Positions 4,064-53,476 are shown, counted from the stretch's first letter. The stretch: 64,000 nt of DNA from a bacterium (GCA_021788015.1 JAJYLD010000005.1:349-64348); one strand, 5' to 3'. Numbers and translations are program-made. The notes: a model not told the origin generated them from the sequence alone.

Positions 4064-6217
4064 ATGTATATAGTCATTCTTCCTTTATTAAGCGGAATTT
4101 TGGTTTTATATTTGGGCTTTTTTATTTTTTTAAAAAATAAAAGATCAAAACTTAATTTGATTTTTTTATTTTTTTCTTTTGCAACGTTTATTTGGTTTTT
4201 CGGCACCTTCATGATGTTTTTAAGCAAGGACAGTGAGAGGGCTTTATTTTGGGACAAATTTGTTTATATCGGCGTAATTTTTATACCCGTGCTGGTTTAC
4301 GATTTTGGAATGATTTTTATAAATCAGGAGCCCAAAAAGAGAAAAATAATATTTTACGGATATTTTTTTTCAACATTTTTTTTGATTTTGGATTTGTTCT
4401 CCCCATTTTTTATAAACGGTACTTTTAAATATGAATGGGGGTTTCATTCCAGGGCACAACTTTTTCATCACTTTTTTTTATTTTATTTCATTCTTTATCT
4501 GTTTTTGCTTTTTTACGAGCTTTACGTGGCATATAAAAGCAGCATCGGTTTAATAAAGGAACAACTTAAATATCTTTTTGTTGCTCTTCTGTTTTTAACA
4601 ACAGGTTCAATAGCTTTTTTGCCGGCTTACGGGATGGATGTTTATCCTTTCGCGTACATTTCCGGAGTTATTTTTACGGTCATCATGACCTACGCCATCG
4701 TCCGCCACCAGCTTATGGACATAAAATTGGTCATGCGGCGCTCTTCGGTTTATTTGTTCTCTCTCGTTTCCATCATTCTTCCCGCTTACGGCCTTGAAGT
4801 GGCCCTGGGCATCCTCGGTTTTAACAATTCAATTTTGATCGACTCTTCTATTTTAATCGGCAGCATCGCTCTTTTTCCGGTCATGAAAGATTATTATTAC
4901 CGGCTCGCGAATAAATATTTTTTCTCGTCTCTTTACGACACGAAAAAGATCATCTCCGATTTAAGCAATGAGTTGCGCCAAACTCTTTTCGCCTCAAAAA
5001 TTTACGATTTCATTTCCAGCGTTTTAATGAACGCTTTTCACGTCAAAGCGCTGGCGATTTTAACTTATGACAAAAAAAGCGGAAATTACAATCTTAAACA
5101 TGCAATCGGCTTTGACTTCGGCAAAGAAAAATTTATCGTCGAAAACAAGGATATCCAGGAAAAATATTTCAGCGAAAACAAAACCATTATTGTCGAAGAA
5201 TTGAAAATGGAAGCGCGCGAAGAATATAAAGATTTTATAAACAAACTTTTGCATTTAAAAATCGAAGTGTTGACCCCGCTTAATTTAAAAAACGAAACTG
5301 TTGGTGTTATCGTTCTCGGACCGAAAGAATCGGGAGACATGTTCAATGAAGAAGATTTTGAAGTGCTGAGAATCGTCGGAGCCCAAGCCGCCATGGCCCT
5401 GGAAAACGCCTTGCTTTACGAAAAAACGAGAAGATTCAACGTTAAATTGAGAAAGGAAGTGGAAATGGCGACGGCGGACTTAAGAGAGGCGAACGAAAGG
5501 CTGAAAAAGCTGGACGAAGCAAAGAGCGATTTTATTTCCATAGCTTCGCACCAATTGCGCACCCCCTTGACGGCGATCAAGGGTTATATTTCCATGATGC
5601 TCGAGGGTGATTTCGGACCCTTGACCGAAAAAGAAAAACAGGTCTTGGAATTGGTTTTTCGTTCGGCGGAAAGGCTTATCAATTTAGTTGAAGATTTGCT
5701 GAATTTATCCCGCATCGAATCGGGAAGAATGCAATTTGTTTTTTCCGAAATCGATCTTAAAAATATGGTAACGGCGGCGGTAAATCGCATGAAGAACGCG
5801 ACCGAGGCGAAGGGATTGGAATTGGATTTCGAATCTCCTTCCGATTTGCCGAAAGTAAAAATGGACGAAGAGAAAATAAAACAAATTATTTTAAATTTTA
5901 TAGACAACGCAATCAAACACACGGATAGGGGCAAAATTTCAGTCGGCTTGAAAAAGAATGTCGACGGAATCGAATTTTCCGTAGCCGACACGGGAGCGGG
6001 GATAGACCGGAAAGCGTTGCCCGATTTATTCAAAAGGTTCACTCGCAGACCGGGAATTCTTGTCGCCGAAGGGATGGGCCTCAGCCTATATTTGGCCAAA
6101 GAAATTCTAAAGGCTCACCGCGGCCGCGTCTGGGCGGAAAGCGAGGGCGAGGGCAAGGGTAGCGTCTTTCATTTTTTATTGCCTATAGATTTGGAATCAA
6201 ATAAAAAATCTGGATAG
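4064..6217 (+). CDS. Sensor histidine kinase (multi-TM N-terminus, GAF-like, HisKA, HATPase_c)
   Basis: H-box SIASHQLRTPLTAIKGY, N-box NFIDNAIKHT, G-boxes DTGAGI and GMGLSL. About 7 hydrophobic N-terminal segments. Confidence 0.9.
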   Translation: MYIVILPLLSGILVLYLGFFIFLKNKRSKLNLIFLFFSFATFIWFFGTFMMFLSKDSERALFWDKFVYIGVIFIPVLVYDFGMIFINQEPKKRKIIFYGYFFSTFFLILDLFSPFFINGTFKYEWGFHSRAQLFHHFFLFYFILYLFLLFYELYVAYKSSIGLIKEQLKYLFVALLFLTTGSIAFLPAYGMDVYPFAYISGVIFTVIMTYAIVRHQLMDIKLVMRRSSVYLFSLVSIILPAYGLEVALGILGFNNSILIDSSILIGSIALFPVMKDYYYRLANKYFFSSLYDTKKIISDLSNELRQTLFASKIYDFISSVLMNAFHVKALAILTYDKKSGNYNLKHAIGFDFGKEKFIVENKDIQEKYFSENKTIIVEELKMEAREEYKDFINKLLHLKIEVLTPLNLKNETVGVIVLGPKESGDMFNEEDFEVLRIVGAQAAMALENALLYEKTRRFNVKLRKEVEMATADLREANERLKKLDEAKSDFISIASHQLRTPLTAIKGYISMMLEGDFGPLTEKEKQVLELVFRSAERLINLVEDLLNLSRIESGRMQFVFSEIDLKNMVTAAVNRMKNATEAKGLELDFESPSDLPKVKMDEEKIKQIILNFIDNAIKHTDRGKISVGLKKNVDGIEFSVADTGAGIDRKALPDLFKRFTRRPGILVAEGMGLSLYLAKEILKAHRGRVWAESEGEGKGSVFHFLLPIDLESNKKSG

Positions 6218-6307
6218 AAGAGGCAATCTCAAAAATCAAAATTCATATTACACGCAATGTTTATAATTTAATGATTTTTATTGTTCGGTTTATGTTTATC
6301 TAAATTT

Positions 6308-8494
6308 ATGACTTTTTTCGCATTTTCAGCTTTAGTTAACGCTTTGATCAGCTTTTTTCTGGGCTCTTTAGTTTACGCGAGAGGCAAAAATTTCCTGAAT
6401 AAAAGTTTTAGCCAGCTTAACTTTGTTATAGCTTTTTGGAGTTTTGGCTATGTTCTTTGGCAGCTTAGCACTTCACAATATCTCGCTTTGGCTTTATTAA
6501 AGGCCATGATGATTTTTGGTCTCTTGGTCGCGCCCTTTGATTATCTTTTTACCATTTATTTTCTTGGAATCGAGAAAAAGCAAAAAATTTCGATTTATTT
6601 TACATATATCGCTTCCGCGCTGTTTGCTCTAATCGATATTTTCAGTAACGGAATCGTAAACGGAGTGGATAAAAAAATGGAATTTAAATTTTGGCCGAAT
6701 GCCGGCCCGTTGCTTTCAGTCTATTTGGTAATTTTCGCTTTTTGGCTTTTGAATTCTCTGTATTTTTTAATCAGAGAATACAAAAGGACGAAAAGCGGAA
6801 TCAAAAAAGAGCAGCTGAGATATATTTTAATCGGCAGTCTTTTGGGATACGCCGGAGGATCAACCAATTTTTTCCTTTGGTATAATATTCAAATTCCCCC
6901 ATATGGGAATATTTTTATTTCCCTTCTAATCATGATGATGTTTTACGCCGTTTTTACCCATCACATCATTGACATAAAAGTGGCTGCGCGTCGGTATTCG
7001 GTTTATCTTTTTTCTTTGCTCACGATCATTCTGCCGGCCTTGATCGTTAAAATATTTTTAAGCTCTCATTTTCAGAATTCGACTGTTTTAAATATCACCA
7101 TACTCATACTCGGCGTTTCTTTTTTTCCCGCGGTCAAAGATTTCTTCTATAAATTATCCAACAAGTATTTCTTTTCTTCTCTTTACAACCCGAAACAGGT
7201 TATCGCCGAACTTGGAGAAAATTTGAACATGTTTTTGGAAGCCGATAAAATTTATTATTTTATTTCCGACTTGATAATGAATTCTTTTCATTCCAAAGCA
7301 ATCGCTGTTTTGCTTTATGATAACGACAAAGAAACTTATTTTCATATAAAGTATAACAACGGTTTCGATCCGGATAATTTAATAAAAATAAACATTGAAA
7401 AAAATATTAAAAATGAATTTTTAGAAAATAAGATTATTTATTTTGAAGAATTGAGACATAACCATTACGCGGAATTTAAAGAATTTATTCGAAGCGTGAC
7501 TGATCTGGAAATGGCGGCTTTCGTGCCCATAAATTTAAAGAACAAAAGATTGGGCCTGATCGTGCTCGGGCCGAAAGAATCCGGAGATATTTATAACGAA
7601 GACGACGCCGACGTTTTGAAAATTATGAGCTCTCAAACCTCGATAGCTCTTGAAAATGCGTTTCTGTACGAAGAAACGGAAATGTTTAACGTCAAATTAA
7701 AAAAAGAGATAGATATGGCGGTGGCCGATTTAAAGAAAGCCAACGCGAAATTAAAAGAACTTGATGAAGCGAAGAGTGAATTCATTTCCATCGCCTCACA
7801 TCAATTGCGCACGCCTTTGACGGCGATAAAGGGCTATGTTTCAATGATGCTCGAAGGCGATTTTGGCAGGCTGGAACAGAAAAAAGAGGAATCTTTAAAG
7901 AAAGTGTTCGATTCGAATCAGAGATTAATCGGATTGATTGAAGATCTTTTGGACGTCTCTCGCATTGAGTCGGGGAAAATGGAATACAATTTTAAAGAAG
8001 CGCGACTTAACGGCATGGTTTTAAGCGTCATAGACGAGCTTGCAAATTATGCAAAAAATAAAAATTTGAATTTAGAATTTGAAAAACCGAACGAAGGATT
8101 GCCGGAAATAAGAATGGACGAAGAAAAAATCAGGCTGGTGATTATGAATCTGATTGATAATGCCATTAAGTATACGCAAAAAGGATTCGTGCGAGTCAGT
8201 TTAAAAGTAAATAACCCACCCTCCCTTACTAAAGGGGGCACAGTTGAGTTTTGCGTCAGTGATTCAGGGATGGGAGTAAGACCGGAAGATTTACCTAATC
8301 TTTTTCAAAAGTTTACCCGCGGCACCGGTACGTCTCTCGTTCATACCGAAGGCACGGGGCTCGGGCTTTATGTCGCTCGTCAAATGATCGAGGCTCATCA
8401 CGGTCATATTTGGGCGGAAAGCGACGGGGAAGGGAAGGGATCAAGGTTTTGTTTCAGTTTACCAATTAAATATACGGTAAAAGTGCAAAAATAA
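6308..8494 (+). CDS. Sensor histidine kinase, tandem paralog of 4064-6217
   Basis: Same architecture and near-identical H-box SIASHQLRTPLTAIKGY. ATG 6308 preferred over the TTG at 6281. Confidence 0.9.
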   Translation: MTFFAFSALVNALISFFLGSLVYARGKNFLNKSFSQLNFVIAFWSFGYVLWQLSTSQYLALALLKAMMIFGLLVAPFDYLFTIYFLGIEKKQKISIYFTYIASALFALIDIFSNGIVNGVDKKMEFKFWPNAGPLLSVYLVIFAFWLLNSLYFLIREYKRTKSGIKKEQLRYILIGSLLGYAGGSTNFFLWYNIQIPPYGNIFISLLIMMMFYAVFTHHIIDIKVAARRYSVYLFSLLTIILPALIVKIFLSSHFQNSTVLNITILILGVSFFPAVKDFFYKLSNKYFFSSLYNPKQVIAELGENLNMFLEADKIYYFISDLIMNSFHSKAIAVLLYDNDKETYFHIKYNNGFDPDNLIKINIEKNIKNEFLENKIIYFEELRHNHYAEFKEFIRSVTDLEMAAFVPINLKNKRLGLIVLGPKESGDIYNEDDADVLKIMSSQTSIALENAFLYEETEMFNVKLKKEIDMAVADLKKANAKLKELDEAKSEFISIASHQLRTPLTAIKGYVSMMLEGDFGRLEQKKEESLKKVFDSNQRLIGLIEDLLDVSRIESGKMEYNFKEARLNGMVLSVIDELANYAKNKNLNLEFEKPNEGLPEIRMDEEKIRLVIMNLIDNAIKYTQKGFVRVSLKVNNPPSLTKGGTVEFCVSDSGMGVRPEDLPNLFQKFTRGTGTSLVHTEGTGLGLYVARQMIEAHHGHIWAESDGEGKGSRFCFSLPIKYTVKVQK
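8213..8240 (+). repeat. GC-rich palindromic unit (family D) in frame in the kinase HATPase domain
   Basis: aacccaccctcccttactaaagggggcac encodes NPPSLTKGG. This segment is absent from the aligned position of the paralog at 4064-6217 (LKKNVDGIEF versus LKVNNPPSLTKGGTVEF). Confidence 0.6.
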
Positions 8495-15303: not shown

Positions 15304-15452
15304 AACGCTTCGCTAGGAGTTACTTTCTTGTAACCAAGAAAGTAACCAAAGAAGTTTCGGGGGCTCCAATTCGCTATCACATTGATTTATCTTTAAACTC
15401 TCTTGCTCTGACGCTCAATTTCGCCCCCAAACCCCATTGGTGTTTTGAATAC
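15304..15452. repeat. Family B repeat, copy 1 (about 150 nt)
   Basis: The first ~80 nt (aacgcttcgctaggagttactttcttgtaaccaagaaagtaacc...gggggctccaattcgc) are identical to 34465-34544. The remainder is similar but diverged. Confidence 0.8.
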
Positions 15453-17386: not shown

Positions 17387-17481
17387 GATTTTATTGAGGC
17401 TGACTTGCCCCGTAGCGGAGCAAAGCGACTGCTACTGGGGTCTCCCGTGGGTTTAAATTTTGAGTGAAGTTTGAACGGCAT
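17383..17481 (-). other. 32-codon upstream ORF duplicating the first 14 codons of uvrB; its TGA overlaps the uvrB ATG
   Basis: [14 protein letters not shown]... versus uvr[15 protein letters not shown]. Seven synonymous third-position differences. The stop is part of ATGA at 17383-17386. Confidence 0.35.
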
Positions 17482-24225: not shown

Positions 24226-24501
24226 ATGAAAATTACAAAAAAAGTGCAGGAAAAATATTTTAAAGCCATTCTTGAAGGCGAGAAAACATACGAAGTCCGT
24301 TTGGCGGATTTTGAATGCAAGCCGGGCGATGTTCTTGTTTTGCTTGAACAAAAAGACGGAACCCGGGAATTGACGGGAAGGAAAATGGAATGCGAAATTT
24401 CCATGGTTTTCAATACGAAAGATATGGAAAAATTTCACAGCAAAAATGAAATCGAAAAGTATGGATTATTGGTTATGGCCATAAAAAAGAAAGAAATATG
24501 A
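24226..24501 (+). CDS. ASCH/DUF3850-like PUA-fold protein
   Basis: KYFKAILEGEKTYEVRLADF...GD.L.L is typical of ASCH/DUF3850. The stop TGA lies in the ATGA at 24498-24501. Confidence 0.6.
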   Translation: MKITKKVQEKYFKAILEGEKTYEVRLADFECKPGDVLVLLEQKDGTRELTGRKMECEISMVFNTKDMEKFHSKNEIEKYGLLVMAIKKKEI

Positions 24502-24623
24502 ATCCCGTTAGAAGCCGCAATCGCTTTCGGCGGAGAATAAATAAAACGGAGTTTAAAAAATTGTAATTTACGCGGATGTGCAATCAAATATTCTTGATCG
24601 CGATCTGCTTCTAACGGGATGAA
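24498..24623 (+). repeat. Family A start-codon hairpin element, copy 1
   Basis: ATGAA+TCCCGTTAGAAGCCGCAATCGC ... GATCGCGATCTGCTTCTAACGGGATGAA. Perfect 14-bp IR at 24502-15/24607-20. The terminal AT is part of ATG 24619. Confidence 0.9.
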
Positions 24624-25155
24624 ACATATTTACATACCCGGTTTTCTCGATACGGCGAAATACAGAAAAATGATCCCGGGTTTAGAAATCTGGCTTGAAG
24701 ATATCGATCCAAAAGAAAAGATTGAAACCGAATATGTAGTCGGGCATAGCATGGGAGCCGATTTCGCCTTGATCAATTGGGACAAAAACAGAAATACAAA
24801 ATTGATTCTTTCCAATCCGATTTTGTTAAAAAGAAATTTTTTTGCATGGGTGGCGAGATGGGCGAAATATTTATTTACGGCGGAAGAAAAGTTTCCGATC
24901 GGCAGATGGCCGACTTTACTTCATCCTGTTCTTGCGATAAAAAGACTTTTTCAATTGATGAATCAAGATTTTGACAAAATTCTTTCCGAAGTTCCCAGAG
25001 GACATATAATTATCGTGAGAGGCAAAGAAGACAAATATTTATGCTGCGAAGAAACGGCCGAATTTATAAAAAATAAAGGCGTAAATTTGATTGAAGTAGA
25101 TGGAGCGAGCCATGATTGGGAAGACGTAAAAAATGAAGTTTTAAAGATTTTATGA
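24619..25155 (+). CDS. Alpha/beta hydrolase (serine hydrolase)
   Basis: GHSMG nucleophile elbow. C-terminal D...H (ASHDWE). Confidence 0.65.
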   Translation: MKHIYIPGFLDTAKYRKMIPGLEIWLEDIDPKEKIETEYVVGHSMGADFALINWDKNRNTKLILSNPILLKRNFFAWVARWAKYLFTAEEKFPIGRWPTLLHPVLAIKRLFQLMNQDFDKILSEVPRGHIIIVRGKEDKYLCCEETAEFIKNKGVNLIEVDGASHDWEDVKNEVLKIL

Positions 25156-33874: not shown

Positions 33875-34419
33875 ATGCCGACATTAAGAATAAACAAAGA
33901 AAATGAAAATTTGATTCATTTTTTAACTATAACGGTTATTGAATGGATCGATATATTTACCAAGCCGGAGTATTGCAAAATAATTACAGACAGTCTGAAA
34001 TTTTGCCGAGAAAATAAAGGGTTAATTTTATATGGATATGTAATTATGCCAAATCATATTCATCTGTTAGTTGGAGCAAGGGGAAGTTTTAATTTATCGC
34101 AAATTATCAGCGATTTTAAAAAACACACAACCAGAGAAATTTTGAAAACATTAAAAAAGATAACAGAAGGTATATTCTGAATCTAATTAAAAATAGCTTC
34201 GTCAGAAAAGAAAATTACAATGACCAAATTTGGCAGAGAGAAAATTATCCGGAAGTCATAACTAGTGAAAAGTTCTTCTTTGAAAAATTAAATTATATTC
34301 ATAATAATCCCGTTAAAAAAGAATTTGTAGAAAAACCGGAAGATTGGCTTTATTCATCAGCAAGAAATACAATTTTACACGGTAACAGCGTAATTGAAAT
34401 TGACGATTGGAGTGGATAA
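33875..34419 (+). mobile_element. RayT / IS200-like HUH (Y1) transposase in two frames joined at A_AAA_AAG (34153-34159)
   Basis: Frame 1 (33875-34180) has the HUH motif MPNHIHLLV. The -1 frame from 34159 reads DNRRYIL...IWQRENYPEVI...LNYIHNNPVKKEFV..PEDWLYSS up to TAA 34417-19. Confidence 0.75.
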
Positions 34420-34464: not shown

Positions 34465-34611
34465 AACGCTTCGCTAGGAGTTACTTTCTTGTAACCAAGA
34501 AAGTAACCAAAGAAGTTTCGGGGGCTCCAATTCGCTATAACATTGATTAGAATTTTCGTCTCTCACCCTGGCGCTCAATTCCGCCCCCGAACCCTATTAG
34601 TGTTCTGAATA
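34465..34611. repeat. Family B repeat, copy 2
   Basis: The first ~80 nt are identical to 15304-15383. It directly abuts the right REP hairpin. Confidence 0.8.
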
Positions 34612-38493: not shown

Positions 38494-39198
38494 ATTTATA
38501 AATTAAAAAGACCCCATGCATATTTGAGTAGCTTTGTATTTTTTAAACTGTTTGGTTTTTTATCTTTTCTGAAAAATCTTTTTACCAATTATAAAAATTT
38601 CTCCGGTATCGATTTCGTCTCAAGACGCTTCGTTCGGGTCTCTCCGCGGAGGGTCGTTTTTTTAGACATCTGCCTGTCGGCAGGCGGGAAGAACCAAAAA
38701 GTCGCTCGCTTGAGAAAATTAAGGAATTTTTCGTTTTCGCTCGGGACGATTTCAAACTAGCTACACACAAACAGTGAAATCTTTTTTCTTCGCTTTCGGT
38801 AAAAAATTCCACTAAATTTTCTATGCTCGCATGGCTTGCATTTCTGGAAATTTTGCGTTAAAATAATAATAAATAAAGAGGCGAGAATTAGCGAAAAAAA
38901 ATAACTAATTTAAGCCTAAATAAGCCAGAACCCATCTCAAAAATAATCTCTAGCTCTTTTTCAGTCTTTTTCGGTTGCAAAATCCAAAAATCTCGTCGAA
39001 ATAGCTTAAATTATTACTCCTCAATTTTTGTATTTTTCCCTCGAAAAATCCTTGAAAAAGACTAAAAGCTATTTTCGAGACAGGTTTTAATAAAAATTGC
39101 TGATTATATGCATTTTTTATTTATTTTAGCGGGCAGTCCGGTCGACGAATAAAAAACCCATTAATCTACAAACAATAAAAAATATAACTTTAATTTTT

Positions 39199-39324
39199 AT
39201 GTATCCCGTTAGAAGCCGCGATCGCTTCGACAGGAAAAACATAAACAAGCAAAAAATCTAATTAATTATATTACACAGATCGAAATCAATATTCTTGATC
39301 GCGATCTGATTCTAATGGGATGTA
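39199..39324 (+). repeat. Family A start-codon hairpin element, copy 2
   Basis: ATGTA+TCCCGTTAGAAGCCGCGATCGC ... GATCGCGATCTGATTCTAATGGGATGTA. The terminal ATG is the start of 39320. Confidence 0.9.
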
Positions 39325-39964
39325 CATAACATGGTTGGGACAATCCTGCCTTAAACTTTCCGATAAAACCGGCTCCGATGCCGTAACTTTAATCACCGAT
39401 CCGTTTGACAAACAAATCGGCCTTCCGGTTCCGCATGTCGAAGCCGATATCGTAACCATAAGCCATGGTCATTTTGACCATAACAACAAAGACGCCGTGC
39501 GAGGCAACCCTTTTGTAATAGATGCGGCGGGCGAATACGACGTGAAGGGAGTGCAAATCGTTGGGATAGATTCCTATCACGATGACAAAGAAGGGAAAGA
39601 GCGGGGCAAAAATGTAATTTATCGCATAACCATGGACGATCTTTCCGTCGTTCATTTGGGCGATCTGGGTCACACGCTCGATGATAAGCAGCTTGAAAAA
39701 ATAAACGGCACGGATATTTTATTTATTCCTGTCGGCGGCGTGTATACCATCGACGCAAGAAGGGCGGTCGAAGTGATAGCGCAAATCGAACCGAGAATCG
39801 TCATGCCCATGCACTATAAAATCAAAGATTTGAAAGTAGAGCTCGATGGAGTCGATAAATTTATAAAAGAAATCGGGTTGACGCCGAAATATGAAGATAA
39901 ATTTAAAATTTCGAAAAAAGATTTGCCGCAGGAAGAGATGGAACTGGTGATACTAAACCTGTAA
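39320..39964 (+). CDS. Metallo-beta-lactamase-fold hydrolase (UPF0173-like)
   Basis: ITWLGQSC...SHGHFDHN...HLGDLGH. Confidence 0.75.
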   Translation: MYITWLGQSCLKLSDKTGSDAVTLITDPFDKQIGLPVPHVEADIVTISHGHFDHNNKDAVRGNPFVIDAAGEYDVKGVQIVGIDSYHDDKEGKERGKNVIYRITMDDLSVVHLGDLGHTLDDKQLEKINGTDILFIPVGGVYTIDARRAVEVIAQIEPRIVMPMHYKIKDLKVELDGVDKFIKEIGLTPKYEDKFKISKKDLPQEEMELVILNL

Positions 39965-39999: not shown

Positions 40000-40106
40000 A
40001 TTAATCCCGTTAGATATCCTGATTATTCAAATGTAAATCGGTATGCCTGATGGGATCGTAAAAAAATTTTTATGTCAACAAAACAACAAATATCTAACGG
40101 GATGAA
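40000..40106 (+). repeat. Family A element, divergent short copy 3
   Basis: Perfect 14-bp IR ATCCCGTTAGATAT (40004-17) / ATATCTAACGGGAT (40090-103). The terminal ATG at 40102 starts a signal peptide. Confidence 0.8.
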
Positions 40107-45711: not shown

Positions 45712-45713
45712 AC

Positions 45714-45955
45714 ACGAATCCCGTTAGGAGCAGCGATCGTTTTTTACGGGAGCGGACAAAAACATAGAATAAAAAACCATAATTTACGCAAATGCGCAAT
45801 TTAAGATTTTGATCGCGATCCCGATACCGCAAATCCTATCGGATTCGGCCACGGGACAAGTTCTGCCGCGCAAAACTTATTATTAACCACGTCTCGCCCC
45901 CGTAGTCACCGAATTTACGAGGTGCACTACAGGGGTCTGCTTTTAACGGAATGAA
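45714..45955 (+). repeat. Family A element, long copy 4, with an extra ~117-nt structured module (45821-45937)
   Basis: The 5' arm is aatcccgttaggagcagcgatcg. The module is ATCCCGATACC...CCCCGTAGTCACCgaatttacgaGGTGcACTACaGGGGTC. The 3' arm TGCTTTTAACGGAATGAA ends in ATG 45951. Confidence 0.85.
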
Positions 45956-46325
45956 TAAAAAATATAAAGTCCTTGTTGTCGAAGATGACGATCTCATCAG
46001 TTCGATGTACAAAATCAAATTTGAAAACGAAGGGTTCGAAGTAACCGTTGCCGGAAACGGCGCCGAGGGATTGGATAACGCCAAAAAGGGAGACTTTGAT
46101 TTAATTCTTCTGGATGTAATTTTGCCGCAATTGGACGGATTTTCGATTTTGTCGGAAATAAAAAAGGACAAAAAAGCGAAAGACATACCCGTAATCATGC
46201 TGACCAATCTCGGAACGGACGAAGATATTCAGAAGGGGAAAAATTTGGGAGCGATTGACTATATAATCAAATCGAGCTTTACGCCTTCGCAAGTGAGCGA
46301 GAAAATTAAGACTTACTTAAAGTAA
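45951..46325 (+). CDS. Receiver-only response regulator (CheY-like)
   Basis: VEDD, the phospho-acceptor D in LILLDVILP, and T/K motifs (MLTNLG, IIKS). Confidence 0.9.
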   Translation: MNKKYKVLVVEDDDLISSMYKIKFENEGFEVTVAGNGAEGLDNAKKGDFDLILLDVILPQLDGFSILSEIKKDKKAKDIPVIMLTNLGTDEDIQKGKNLGAIDYIIKSSFTPSQVSEKIKTYLK

Positions 46326-48474: not shown

Positions 48475-48521
48475 TCTTTTCCTCTTTTTTCAAATCACAA
48501 AATTATATATATAAATAAGAT

Positions 48522-48648
48522 ATGAATCCCGTTAGAAGCCGCGATCGCTTTTAGGGGGAGTCAAAAAACAAAAATAAAAAAATAAATAATTTTAAAATAT
48601 CATGCAGATCAAAAATTTTTGATCGCGATCTGCTTCTAACGGGATGAA
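48522..48648 (+). repeat. Family A start-codon hairpin element, copy 5
   Basis: ATGAA+TCCCGTTAGAAGCCGCGATCGC ... GATCGCGATCTGCTTCTAACGGGATGAA. The terminal ATG 48644 opens the Ile-rich leader ORF. Confidence 0.9.
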
Positions 48649-48721
48649 TTTATTTCAAAGCGCGAAAATTATTTCGATTATTGAGATCATCATTATTGAT
48701 GACCATTTTTGCGCGCTTTGA
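48644..48721 (+). promoter_or_regulatory. Ile-rich leader peptide ORF (25 codons, 8 Ile)
   Basis: MNLFQSAKIISIIEIIIIDDHFCAL. The stop lies inside the candidate antiterminator strand 48714-48726. Confidence 0.7.
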
Positions 48722-52828: not shown

Positions 52829-52880
52829 AACCTCACCCCAACTCCTCTCCTAGTTCAAGAGAGGGGCCTGACTTGAACAG
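52829..52880. repeat. Family C palindromic unit, intergenic variant
   Basis: aacctcaccccaactCCTCTCctagttcaaGAGAGGggcctgacttgaac. Confidence 0.6.
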
Positions 52881-52911
52881 TTTTTTAATATTTGTTAGAA
52901 TGTAAGCAGAT

Positions 52912-53115
52912 ATGAATCCCGTTAGAAGCCGCGATCGCTTCAACGGGAGTAAAAATTAAAATATAATATTCGCAGAGTGATCCCGATACCACCAATCCTA
53001 TCGGATTTGGCTATGGGACAAGTCCATTGCAAGTAATTTATTATTAATTACGCCTCGCCCCGTAGTCACCGAGTTTACGAGGTGCACTACCGGGGTCTGC
53101 TTCTAACGGGATGAA
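52912..53115 (+). repeat. Family A element, long copy 6, with the structured module (52982-53097)
   Basis: ATGAA+TCCCGTTAGAAGCCGCGATCGC; the module is homologous to 45821-45937; the 3' arm is TGCTTCTAACGGGATGAA. The terminal ATG 53111 opens a 26-codon ORF. Confidence 0.9.
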
Positions 53116-53191
53116 AAGATACTGTGCACAAATGAATAATAACAATAATAACTGGCTCAAGACCGGTTTCTTTTCATGTGTTAAAAAGTAA
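53111..53191 (+). promoter_or_regulatory. Candidate leader peptide with six consecutive Asn codons
   Basis: MKRYCAQMNNNNNNWLKTGFFSCVKK. GACCGGTT (53161-68) inside the ORF is the exact complement of the terminator 5' arm AACCGGTC (53214-21). Confidence 0.4.
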
Positions 53192-53213
53192 GTTAAAAAA
53201 TCACATAAAAAAG

Positions 53214-53242
53214 AACCGGTCGGGCAAAAGGCCGGTTTTTTT
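53214..53242 (+). terminator. Terminator-like hairpin between the Asn-run ORF and the 57-aa gene
   Basis: AACCGGTC gggcaaaa GGCCGGTT plus T7. Confidence 0.6.
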
Positions 53243-53302
53243 GTTTGATCTTTTGGAAAAAAGTTGGGAAATTTTATAAACCGTTTTTTAAAGGAGGGCG
53301 TC

Positions 53303-53476
53303 ATGACGGTAAGAACAGTTAAAGTCAGGGACGAGTTAACCGGACAGAAGGTAGTGGCCAGTATTGAAGAAGTGGGCGGAAGGAGACTTTTGGTTCTGCC
53401 CGGACTTAGGAAAGTGGAACAGCCATTTCCTCCGAAAGAGGAGCCAGCTAAACCGGAAGACGAGCCAAGCAACTAG
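53303..53476 (+). CDS. 57-aa protein (hypothetical)
   Basis: AAAGGAGGG SD 4 nt before the ATG. Terminator GGCAAGCaaaaacaGCTTGCC plus T-run at 53476-53506. Confidence 0.5.
   Translation: MTVRTVKVRDELTGQKVVASIEEVGGRRLLVLPGLRKVEQPFPPKEEPAKPEDEPSN

Follow-up and report, generated by a model that had tools for sequence, protein, structure and literature searches.

In the bacterial stretch GCA_021788015.1 JAJYLD010000005.1:349-64348 (64,000 nucleotides, one strand; the term window refers below to this whole stretch), two copies of a short repeat located at start codons carry an extra hairpin-forming block, here called the module or cassette, at positions 45821-45937 (117 nt) and 52983-53097 (115 nt) of the plus strand. 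The explanation we favor, with somewhat more confidence than doubt, is that this module is an optional internal cassette of an element resembling transposable elements of the miniature inverted-repeat type (MITEs), and that it consists of two imperfect hairpins of the repetitive extragenic palindromic (REP) type which repeat the terminal recognition motif of that element. The nearest relatives of the proteins encoded in the window belong to Patescibacteria, the candidate phyla radiation (CPR), and on this reading the module is an optional segment of a bacterial MITE-like element in organisms for which our literature searches returned no description of small non-coding mobile repeats of this kind. 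CPR genomes are very small and have short intergenic regions, and it is there that this repeat family lands on start codons. The hairpin cassette is common to several CPR lineages, namely groundwater lineages, Paceibacterota, Sungiibacteriota, and Berkelbacteria, while the targeting of start codons by its host element is the more unusual feature of the two.

The host element is a repeat of the inverted-repeat type with a length of about 120 nt, of which the 64 kb contain six copies of 100-235 nt each and other CPR genomes contain further copies. With at most one mismatch allowed, the terminal 10-mer ATCCCGTTAG occurs 13 times compared with 3.3 expected occurrences, a count that was reached by no shuffle. 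The terminal inverted repeats comprise about 23 nt, with the consensus ATCCCGTTAGAAGCCGCGATCGC for the 5′ arm and TTGATCGCGATCTGCTTCTAACGGGAT for the 3′ arm, and ATCCCGTTAGAAGC(C)GCGATCGC is complementary to GATCGCGATCTGCTTCTAACGGGAT, as is typical of a bacterial MITE. In folds of the full element both terminal repeats close a long stem, from which the module would protrude as a side branch if the whole element is transcribed. Also in line with a MITE, the element is small, present in multiple copies, and non-coding, no reading frame being consistently open.

Long copy 1 spans positions 45718-45952 of the plus strand and includes both terminal repeats; the AT with which it ends also opens the start codon of a single-domain response regulator (45951-46325, plus strand), the ATG of which lies within the ATGAA repeat at the element end. 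Its 5′ terminal inverted repeat (45718-45739; ATCCCGTTAGGAGCAGCGATCG) is followed by an AT-rich spacer without conservation among the long copies (45740-45808) and by the inner part of the 3′ repeat (45809-45820; TTGATCGCGATC), directly after which lies the left boundary of the cassette; the terminal 15 nt of the 3′ repeat (45938-45952; TGCTTTTAACGGAAT) complete the copy. Long copy 2 is located at 52916-53112 on the same strand. Four short copies lacking the module, all likewise on the plus strand, were found at 24502-24620, 39203-39321, 48526-48645, and 40004-40103, the last being a variant with differing internal sequence.

The flanks tie the element to translation start regions. As expected for a MITE, it is bordered by direct repeats in the layout ATGAA|TCCCGTTAG...CTAACGGG|ATGAA, with the start codon located inside the repeat. 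Of the 12 copies examined, 8 have an ATGAA-type pentamer with an ATG on their 5′ side; on the 3′ side all of them show ATGAA or a sequence close to it, and it is always this 3′ repeat that supplies the start codon. Copy 39203 carries ATGTA instead of ATGAA on both sides. Copies including their flanking direct repeats were delimited at 24497-24625, 39198-39326, 48521-48650, 45713-45955, and 52911-53115 of the window, at 2786-3236 of contig L008, and at 4512-5103 of contig L009. For copy 24502, the TGA stop codon of the upstream open reading frame (ORF) lies in the 5′ ATGAA and the ATG of the downstream ORF in the 3′ ATGAA, which is the outcome expected from insertion into an ATGA stop/start overlap. 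Thus, the host element behaves like a MITE-like mobile repeat associated with start codons, mobilized by a hypothetical enzyme, and it looks like an element that targets and rebuilds start codons. Insertion at ATGAA with duplication of the site leaves the downstream gene with its ATG at the edge of the element.

Orthologous response-regulator loci (65-73% amino acid identity), including the syntenic gyrA-x-RR-NDK locus on contig L017, do not contain the element, in line with its mobility. They have plain AT-rich intergenic DNA of 56-100 nt in its place, with TTGATA-17-TATAAT promoters and without a Shine-Dalgarno sequence; these relatives are distant, so that an exact empty site cannot be aligned. 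Tandem arrays of the host element were found in L008 and L009, in which neighboring copies are joined by CTAACGGG-ATGAA-TCCCGTTAG and one ATGAA is common to both. Host subfamilies were also seen that share only the outer ~11 nt and the ATGAA flanks, as represented by ATCCCGTTAGAGAAT (L008, 2791-3004) and ATCCCGTTACA (L020, 516-622), the latter copy with CCCGTAGTC inside. An isolated sequence similar to the 5′ arm, ATCCCGTTAA, is located at 34307-34316 of the window with no partner 3′ arm nearby, and is either a decayed half-element or a chance match.

The module occurs exactly twice within the window; its copies have a global identity of 84.7%, and blastn pairs them in two pieces (E = 2e-18 and 7e-9). 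An earlier note on this DNA, made from the sequence alone, had described an extra block between GATC and TGCTT in the two long copies, and the block is present with the sequences it described. Its coordinates for the first copy, 45821-45937, hold as well (GATC at 45817-45820, TGCTT from 45938), while the start given for the second copy, 52982, is one base early; the same rule yields 52983-53097. The length of the cassette ranges from 115 to 118 nt among the copies found, and it splits the gene-proximal repeat between the inner GATC-rich part and the last 15 nt.

For the detection of module homologs, exact-pattern scans of genome and metagenome collections were performed, followed by a search of protein space for translated modules. 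The first pattern used on the genome collection was too strict in the loop and gave no matches. Pattern scans detected the module in groundwater metagenome contigs of the JGI (L001-L006), in a metagenome-assembled genome (MAG) of Candidatus Paceibacterota (L007), and in a MAG of Candidatus Sungiibacteriota (three copies on L008 and L009). The protein-space search provided four spurious "proteins" (P0121-P0124) that are translated modules, the contigs L019-L021, which are variants of loci already found, and a Candidatus Berkelbacteria contig (L022) that starts inside a module. A covariance model built from nine copies (R1) and applied to 166 kb recovered only the known copies and one weak match, a solo hairpin upstream of uvrB. 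In viral contigs there was one chance match within a coding region and no match to a junction, BLAST searches against plasmids and phages resulted in chance-level matches only, and a profile of the translated module, run against 1.84 billion representative proteins, revealed no new copies. The expectation that the block is conserved, discrete, and hairpin-forming was borne out, with homologs in other CPR lineages.

The L020 (10036-10165) and L021 (1388-1635) copies are population variants of one locus. L020 shows a 13-nt tandem duplication (GGATTTGGCTAC + 1) within the 5′ hairpin, and in L021 the 3′ stem contains an A·C mismatch and another gene follows the element, with the upstream flank and the element being identical, a sign that the locus was rearranged, or mis-assembled, at the repeat.

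Altogether, about ten module copies from the window and five other sources were available for comparison. The cassette is discrete, and neither its site in the host element nor its orientation varies among them. In every case it lies 13-15 nt ahead of an ATG on the sense strand, and the genes that follow are unrelated, encoding a response regulator, a 26-amino-acid (aa) peptide, a PrsW-type protease, and uncharacterized proteins. Its boundaries are given exactly by L009, where a short copy at 4517-4625 lies next to a long one at 4633-4866; the spacers of the two show 85% identity, and the cassette is what distinguishes these copies, with the junctions GATC|CCGCTACC...GGGGTC|TGCTTC. Conversely, the cassettes of L003 and L004 are 99.1% identical, the fast-changing linker included, while their spacers are 66.7% identical compared with 62.8% expected from shuffled sequences. 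The spacer of copy 45718 is nearer to those of short copies from the same genome (68-71% vs. ~58% shuffled) than to that of any long copy. These three observations show that the cassette has a history of its own: its gain, loss, or exchange was independent of the other parts of the element. In addition, genome-specific variants of the module exist: the first base of the internal loop depends on the genome, and at the bulge the two window copies have C where the others have T. The 3′ repeat of the long copy in L008 is partly of the type of the neighboring subfamily, and this chimeric repeat suggests that adjacent copies have recombined. The mosaics of cassette and spacer could have arisen by site-specific insertion, by gene conversion between copies, or by precise hairpin-stimulated deletion, three routes that the copies at hand cannot separate.

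Each cassette comprises two hairpins separated by a linker. In copy 1, the 5′ hairpin (45819-45856) is built of the three tiers UCCCG/CGGGA, CCG/CGG, and AAUCC/GGAUU, and the fold conserved among the copies can be written as UCCCG / CCR / AAUCC-loop-GGAUU / YGG / CGGGA. The variable AU-rich linker (45857-45895) contains the semi-conserved TTAYTATTAAC, and its 3′ end (ACCACG) could pair with CGUAGU of the 3′ hairpin. The 3′ hairpin (45896-45936) has a stem of CCCCGUAGUCACC / GGUGYACUACNGGGG that is near-invariant and interrupted by two bulges, and an apex of CGAG-n4-YGAG (tandem G·A) with a variable tetraloop (UUUA, CGUG, CACG, UCUA, or CUUG). In copy 2, the 5′ and 3′ hairpins are located at 52981-53018 and 53057-53096, respectively. 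The 13-bp bulged hairpin described in the earlier note is thus found in both copies, at 45898-45935 and 53058-53095. The plus-strand folds are more stable than expected, with z-scores of -4.2 and -2.9 for the two whole modules and -4.65 for the 3′ hairpin alone. As also proposed earlier, the differences between the window copies reside in loops and linker or preserve pairing: CCG/CGG is replaced by CCA/UGG, which is truly compensatory, a G-C pair by G-U, and a G·A by G-C. Moreover, the block does echo the terminal motif of its host: CCCG(n)TA, as in TCCCGTTAG, is found in each of the four hairpin arms as well as in the host termini, so the stem bases YCCCG-n-TA / TA-n-CGGGR repeat the terminal motif TCCCGTTAG / CTAACGGGA.

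How the hairpins change among the copies points to sequence-specific recognition rather than to an RNA selected for its structure only, as far as the aligned copies allow such a reading. Identity amounts to 92% in the 3′ stem and 86% in the 5′ stem, compared with 66-69% at unpaired positions and 59% in the linker. The 13-bp 3′ stem shows no compensatory change and is the same in the Parcubacteria and Berkelbacteria copies. A near-invariant stem combined with a freely varying loop is the pattern expected if the stem sequence itself is recognized.

A relative of the 3′ hairpin occurs alone upstream of uvrB, at 17405-17443 on the plus strand (hairpin 17408-17440), with the sequence CTTG-CCCCGTAGCG-GAGCAAAGCGA-CUGCTACTGGGG-TCT. 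The relationship had been suspected from the sequence alone, and it is supported by the base stem CCCCGTAG...CTACnGGGG, the flanking bases, and the GAG-n-CGA apex that the hairpin shares with the module. It is located 21 nt upstream of uvrB, which is encoded on the minus strand, so it is antisense to this gene and on the same absolute strand as the modules, and it folds better on the plus strand. As a single case, it fits a DNA-level or strand-level element better than an RNA signal in the sense of the gene.

From these data we propose the following scenario. The host element, with ~23-nt terminal repeats of the ATCCCGTTAGAAGCCGCGATCGC type, would insert at ATGAA, that is a start codon plus two bases, and duplicate this site. 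The hairpins of the cassette would represent extra copies of the structure or sequence recognized by the mobilizing enzyme of the family, and selection on them would be sequence-specific. The cassette itself may have originated as subterminal sequence of an autonomous parent or as a nested hairpin element. Located 13-15 nt ahead of the start codon on the sense strand, the cassette would be carried passively into mRNA leaders and add two stable hairpins to any transcript started upstream; an effect on expression is treated here as a by-product. If the cassette reflects the transposition machinery only, it is useful as a marker, both in the search for the enzyme and in following horizontal exchange between CPR lineages.

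Among known bacterial repeats, several families come closest to the element or its module. Like Correia elements (NEMIS) of Neisseria, the host element is small and non-coding, has terminal inverted repeats (~24-26 bp in Correia) and a short target duplication, lies beside genes with which it would be co-transcribed, and exists in long and short forms that differ by one internal segment (PMC2229807). The ~107- and ~155-bp forms of Correia elements, which differ by a 50-bp internal segment (PMC2229807), are the closest published analog of the long and short forms described here. In contrast to Correia, the extra segment here has ~117 nt, contains two hairpins echoing the termini, and divides the terminal repeat; the element targets ATGAA at start codons instead of TA, and a sequence similarity between the two was not found. 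ERIC (IRU) repeats of enterobacteria resemble the element as ~127-bp imperfect palindromes transcribed with flanking genes. Among ERIC repeats there are also longer variants, in which insertions are located at fixed internal positions. However, the organisms are unrelated, sequence similarity is lacking, and ERIC repeats are not tied to start codons.

At the level of the module, the REP/BIME/REPIN sequences mobilized by RAYT (Y1/HUH) proteins are similar in being imperfect, GC-rich hairpins 35-45 nt long that contain bulged bases and combine a conserved stem with a free loop, and the solo copy in intergenic DNA in the other orientation is a further likeness. They differ from the present case in that only three hairpins of this type are found in 64 kb, that the module hairpins are arranged directly and not inverted, and that no RAYT gene was seen in the DNA examined. 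PATEs, palindrome-associated transposable elements derived from IS200/IS605 insertion sequences (IS), have neither proper terminal inverted repeats nor a target duplication; like them, the module has a constant left flank, here GATC, shows no target duplication, and apparently lacks proper terminal inverted repeats. As in PATEs, similar subterminal hairpins are present at the two ends on one strand, both directly oriented and with CCCG(n)TA...TA(n)CGGG as their base. In IS608, the cleavage sites are offset from the hairpins, by ~19 nt on the left and by ~10 nt on the right. The module junctions, unlike these, are 0-2 nt from the hairpin feet, so that the arrangement of IS608, with its offsets and guide tetranucleotides, is not reproduced; moreover, no TnpA or TnpB was found nearby, and all complete cassettes found are inside the host element.

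Several results weigh against a cassette that is part of a mobile element and moves as such. No transposase or recombinase domain was detected by Pfam in the ~50 ORFs of the window or in the called genes of the fetched loci, so that the mobilizing enzyme is hypothetical; the same set of genes likewise revealed no autonomous partner with identical termini and a transposase. Among all copies found, the complete cassette is always within the host element and never outside it, every complete module occupying the same site, and only the 3′ hairpin occurs alone (17408-17440), whereas a nested MITE should be found at unrelated genomic sites; these copies thus give no example of independent transposition. 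Gene conversion between copies or precise hairpin-stimulated deletion could give the same mosaics. At the cassette junctions GATC|CCG...GGGGTC|TGC no more than 2 nt (TC) are repeated, and there is no target-site duplication. The cassette ends agree at only 7-9 of 11-12 positions, which is unlike a standard cut-and-paste MITE: in direct reading, 9 of 12 positions match in L003 and L004 (GATCCCGGTACC vs. GACCCCGGTAGT) and 7 of 12 in window copy 1. The conservation of the GC-rich repeats and the cassette, with spacers that are free to change, is poorly explained by a model of purely selfish copies. Finally, with a manually curated structure on eight distinct copies, 95.5% of the proposed paired cells were kept compared with 23-45% in slid controls, which fits a role as RNA or as a single strand equally; two pairs of the 5′ hairpin show double changes (U-A to C-G and A-U to G-C), and several one-sided changes yield G-U on the plus strand.

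These pairing data are shared with the strongest competing explanation, in which the module is a cis-acting leader RNA spread by a mobile element, its hairpins and a possible alternative helix modulating mRNA stability or translation initiation at the start codon, which follows 13-15 nt downstream. We regard this as a possible but clearly less probable explanation. It would account for the position of the module, which is always on the sense strand directly 5′ of an ATG, for the stable folds with z-scores down to -4.65, and for the retained pairs (95.5%) including the two compensatory ones. The G-U pairs formed on the plus strand by several one-sided changes, the stable (CGAG)2 tandem G·A context of the apex, and the helix ACUACGG/CCGUAGU, which is 82% paired compared with 20-51% in controls and of unproven significance, also fit such an RNA, and ERIC repeats provide a precedent for orientation-dependent effects at the RNA level on mRNA (PMC2229807). 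However, covariation is not significant, since the two double-change pairs were matched by 110 of 500 shuffles and the sequences are too alike for such a test; the 3′ stem is invariant and not covarying although the linker is near saturation. RNAalifold adds a closing helix AUCGCG/CGGGAU adjoining the AUG, again of unproven significance. Furthermore, the downstream genes are functionally unrelated, the solo hairpin at uvrB is antisense to its gene, three to five A·C cells are present besides the G-U pairs, which makes the strand asymmetry weak, and no promoter is positioned consistently enough to put the module into a defined 5′ untranslated region. If the cassette does act in RNA, it would be a portable leader altering the expression of any gene that is hit.

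A more far-reaching form of either reading appears doubtful to us, namely that the hairpins are recognition or cleavage structures of a hairpin-guided single-strand mobility system in CPR, with the cassette homing into the terminal repeat of a second mobile element that for its part targets start codons, or that the cassette is a mobile RNA leader keeping hit genes expressed. Should either be true, a two-level mobile system would be rewiring translation start regions in organisms with minimal genomes.

Still less probable is a function of the module as a portable outward promoter combined with a 5′-terminal stabilizing hairpin, where GGGACA and TAYTAT, spaced by 18-20 nt within the 5′ hairpin and the linker, would let transcription begin shortly ahead of the 3′ hairpin and thereby restore the expression of the gene whose start codon was hit. 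Both GGGACAAG and TTAYTATTAAC are conserved in nearly all copies, scans gave GGGACA-18-TATTAT for two copies and TTGGCT-17-TATACT for another two, and the related CPR intergenic regions use TTGATA-17-TATAAT without a Shine-Dalgarno sequence. The matches reach at most 9 of 12 positions, however, the spacing is 19-20 nt in several copies, and four of the eight long copies scanned lack such a hit.

The earlier note had pointed to a structured regulatory RNA, be it a self-cleaving ribozyme or a ligand-binding riboswitch, which we now consider highly improbable. Only the compact fold and the position ahead of start codons speak for it. At the gathering threshold, Rfam models match only a tRNA, and at E ≤ 10 only chance matches to small nucleolar RNAs outside the module were obtained for the two loci, so no Rfam family covers it; a conserved multi-helix junction or pseudoknot is likewise absent, the downstream genes are unrelated, and, as set out above, covariation is not significant and the 3′ stem lacks compensatory changes despite a linker identity of 59%. 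The specific helices fare no better. The hairpin CCGATA-n10-TATCGG is not the conserved 5′ fold, since 83% of its cells pair, double changes are absent, and two of its pairs fail in three to four of the eight copies, a U-A pair in four, including Sungiibacteriota; similarly, ATTCGG/CCGAAT shows no double changes, and its outer A-U pair fails in five of eight copies. The internal ACGGGAG and AACGGGAG that were thought to allow an alternative fold freeing the start codon do exist in the window copies, but this fold is not conserved: ACGGGAG, the presumed expression platform, is missing in most homologs (the long copies L003, L004, L008, L009b, and L019), related forms occur in the short/long pair of L009 and in some short copies of the window, and the pairing is never used by the minimum free energy fold. 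The note had itself reckoned its proposal lost should the module turn out to be the end of a known IS or MITE, and this is essentially what was found, the module being an internal cassette of a MITE-like element, although the literature searches returned no description of this element.

A peptide encoded by the module is effectively refuted: a plus-strand frame is open across it in some copies, frames are open on both strands, and gene callers made 53-61-aa "proteins" (P0121-P0124) from it, yet stops or indel shifts break the frames in most copies, variable positions show no synonymous bias, stem positions are invariant at all three codon positions, and among 1.84 billion representative proteins only the module translations P0122 and P0123 were obtained, the other five hits being short stretches of long multi-stretch proteins. 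Correspondingly, the minus-strand ORFs 45836-46207 and 53044-53472 share LFIPL(K/E)ADPxSAPRKxGDYG only because they translate the module, as had been assumed.

A number of further candidates were considered and rejected. An integron attC-like site does not fit, as the element reads GTTAGAA...TTCTAAC, with the core boxes (R'' RYYYAAC / R' GTTRRRY) in reverse order and each one base off the consensus. An insertion 3′ of TTGAT as known for ISDra2 does not agree with the junctions. The idea that the spacer is native locus DNA trapped between two half-elements was abandoned, as spacers are shared between loci and copied in tandem arrays; hypermutation of the spacers by a diversity-generating retroelement (DGR) was discarded, the differences not being limited to adenines, and a promoter scan found no consistent sigma-70 promoter in the spacers. 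The asymmetry of G-U and A·C between the strands was dropped as a proof of an RNA role, the counts being too small and mixed.

The cassette also has a practical cost in the form of broken assemblies and spurious database proteins. Contigs L011 (module at 1-111) and L022 (1-95) begin within a module, the first ~35 residues of P0130 are spurious and stem from the module, and gene callers likewise emit P0121-P0124.

Further features of the window were noted next to copies of the host element. The terminal ATGAA of long copy 2 provides the start of a 26-aa short ORF (sORF) rich in Cys and Asn (MKRYCAQMNNNNNNWLKTGFFSCVKK; 53111-53191, plus strand), which is followed by a terminator-like 13-bp hairpin at 53209-53242. 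Just upstream of this copy, a promoter-like TTGAAC-17-TAGAAT with a TG is located at 52873-52901, so that long copy 2 seems to have inserted into a very small, self-contained transcription unit (53111-53242). The 3′ ATGAA of copy 48526 starts a 25-aa Ile-rich sORF (MNLFQSAKIISIIEIIIIDDHFCAL; 48644-48721) just upstream of a leuA/cimA-like gene (48681/48699-50396), and this sORF resembles an attenuation leader peptide.

Two other repeats in the window are separate from the element. An 84-nt repeat at 15304-15387 and 34465-34548 is 99% identical between its copies and holds a perfect 12-bp hairpin (GTTACTTTCTTG/CAAGAAAGTAAC); weaker similarity continues downstream, and Rfam gave no match to it at the gathering threshold. 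A 300-nt direct repeat with 71% identity (5282-5581 and 7532-7831) is present because two adjacent paralogous histidine kinases of the 7TM-GAF-HisKA-HATPase type are encoded at 4064-8494.

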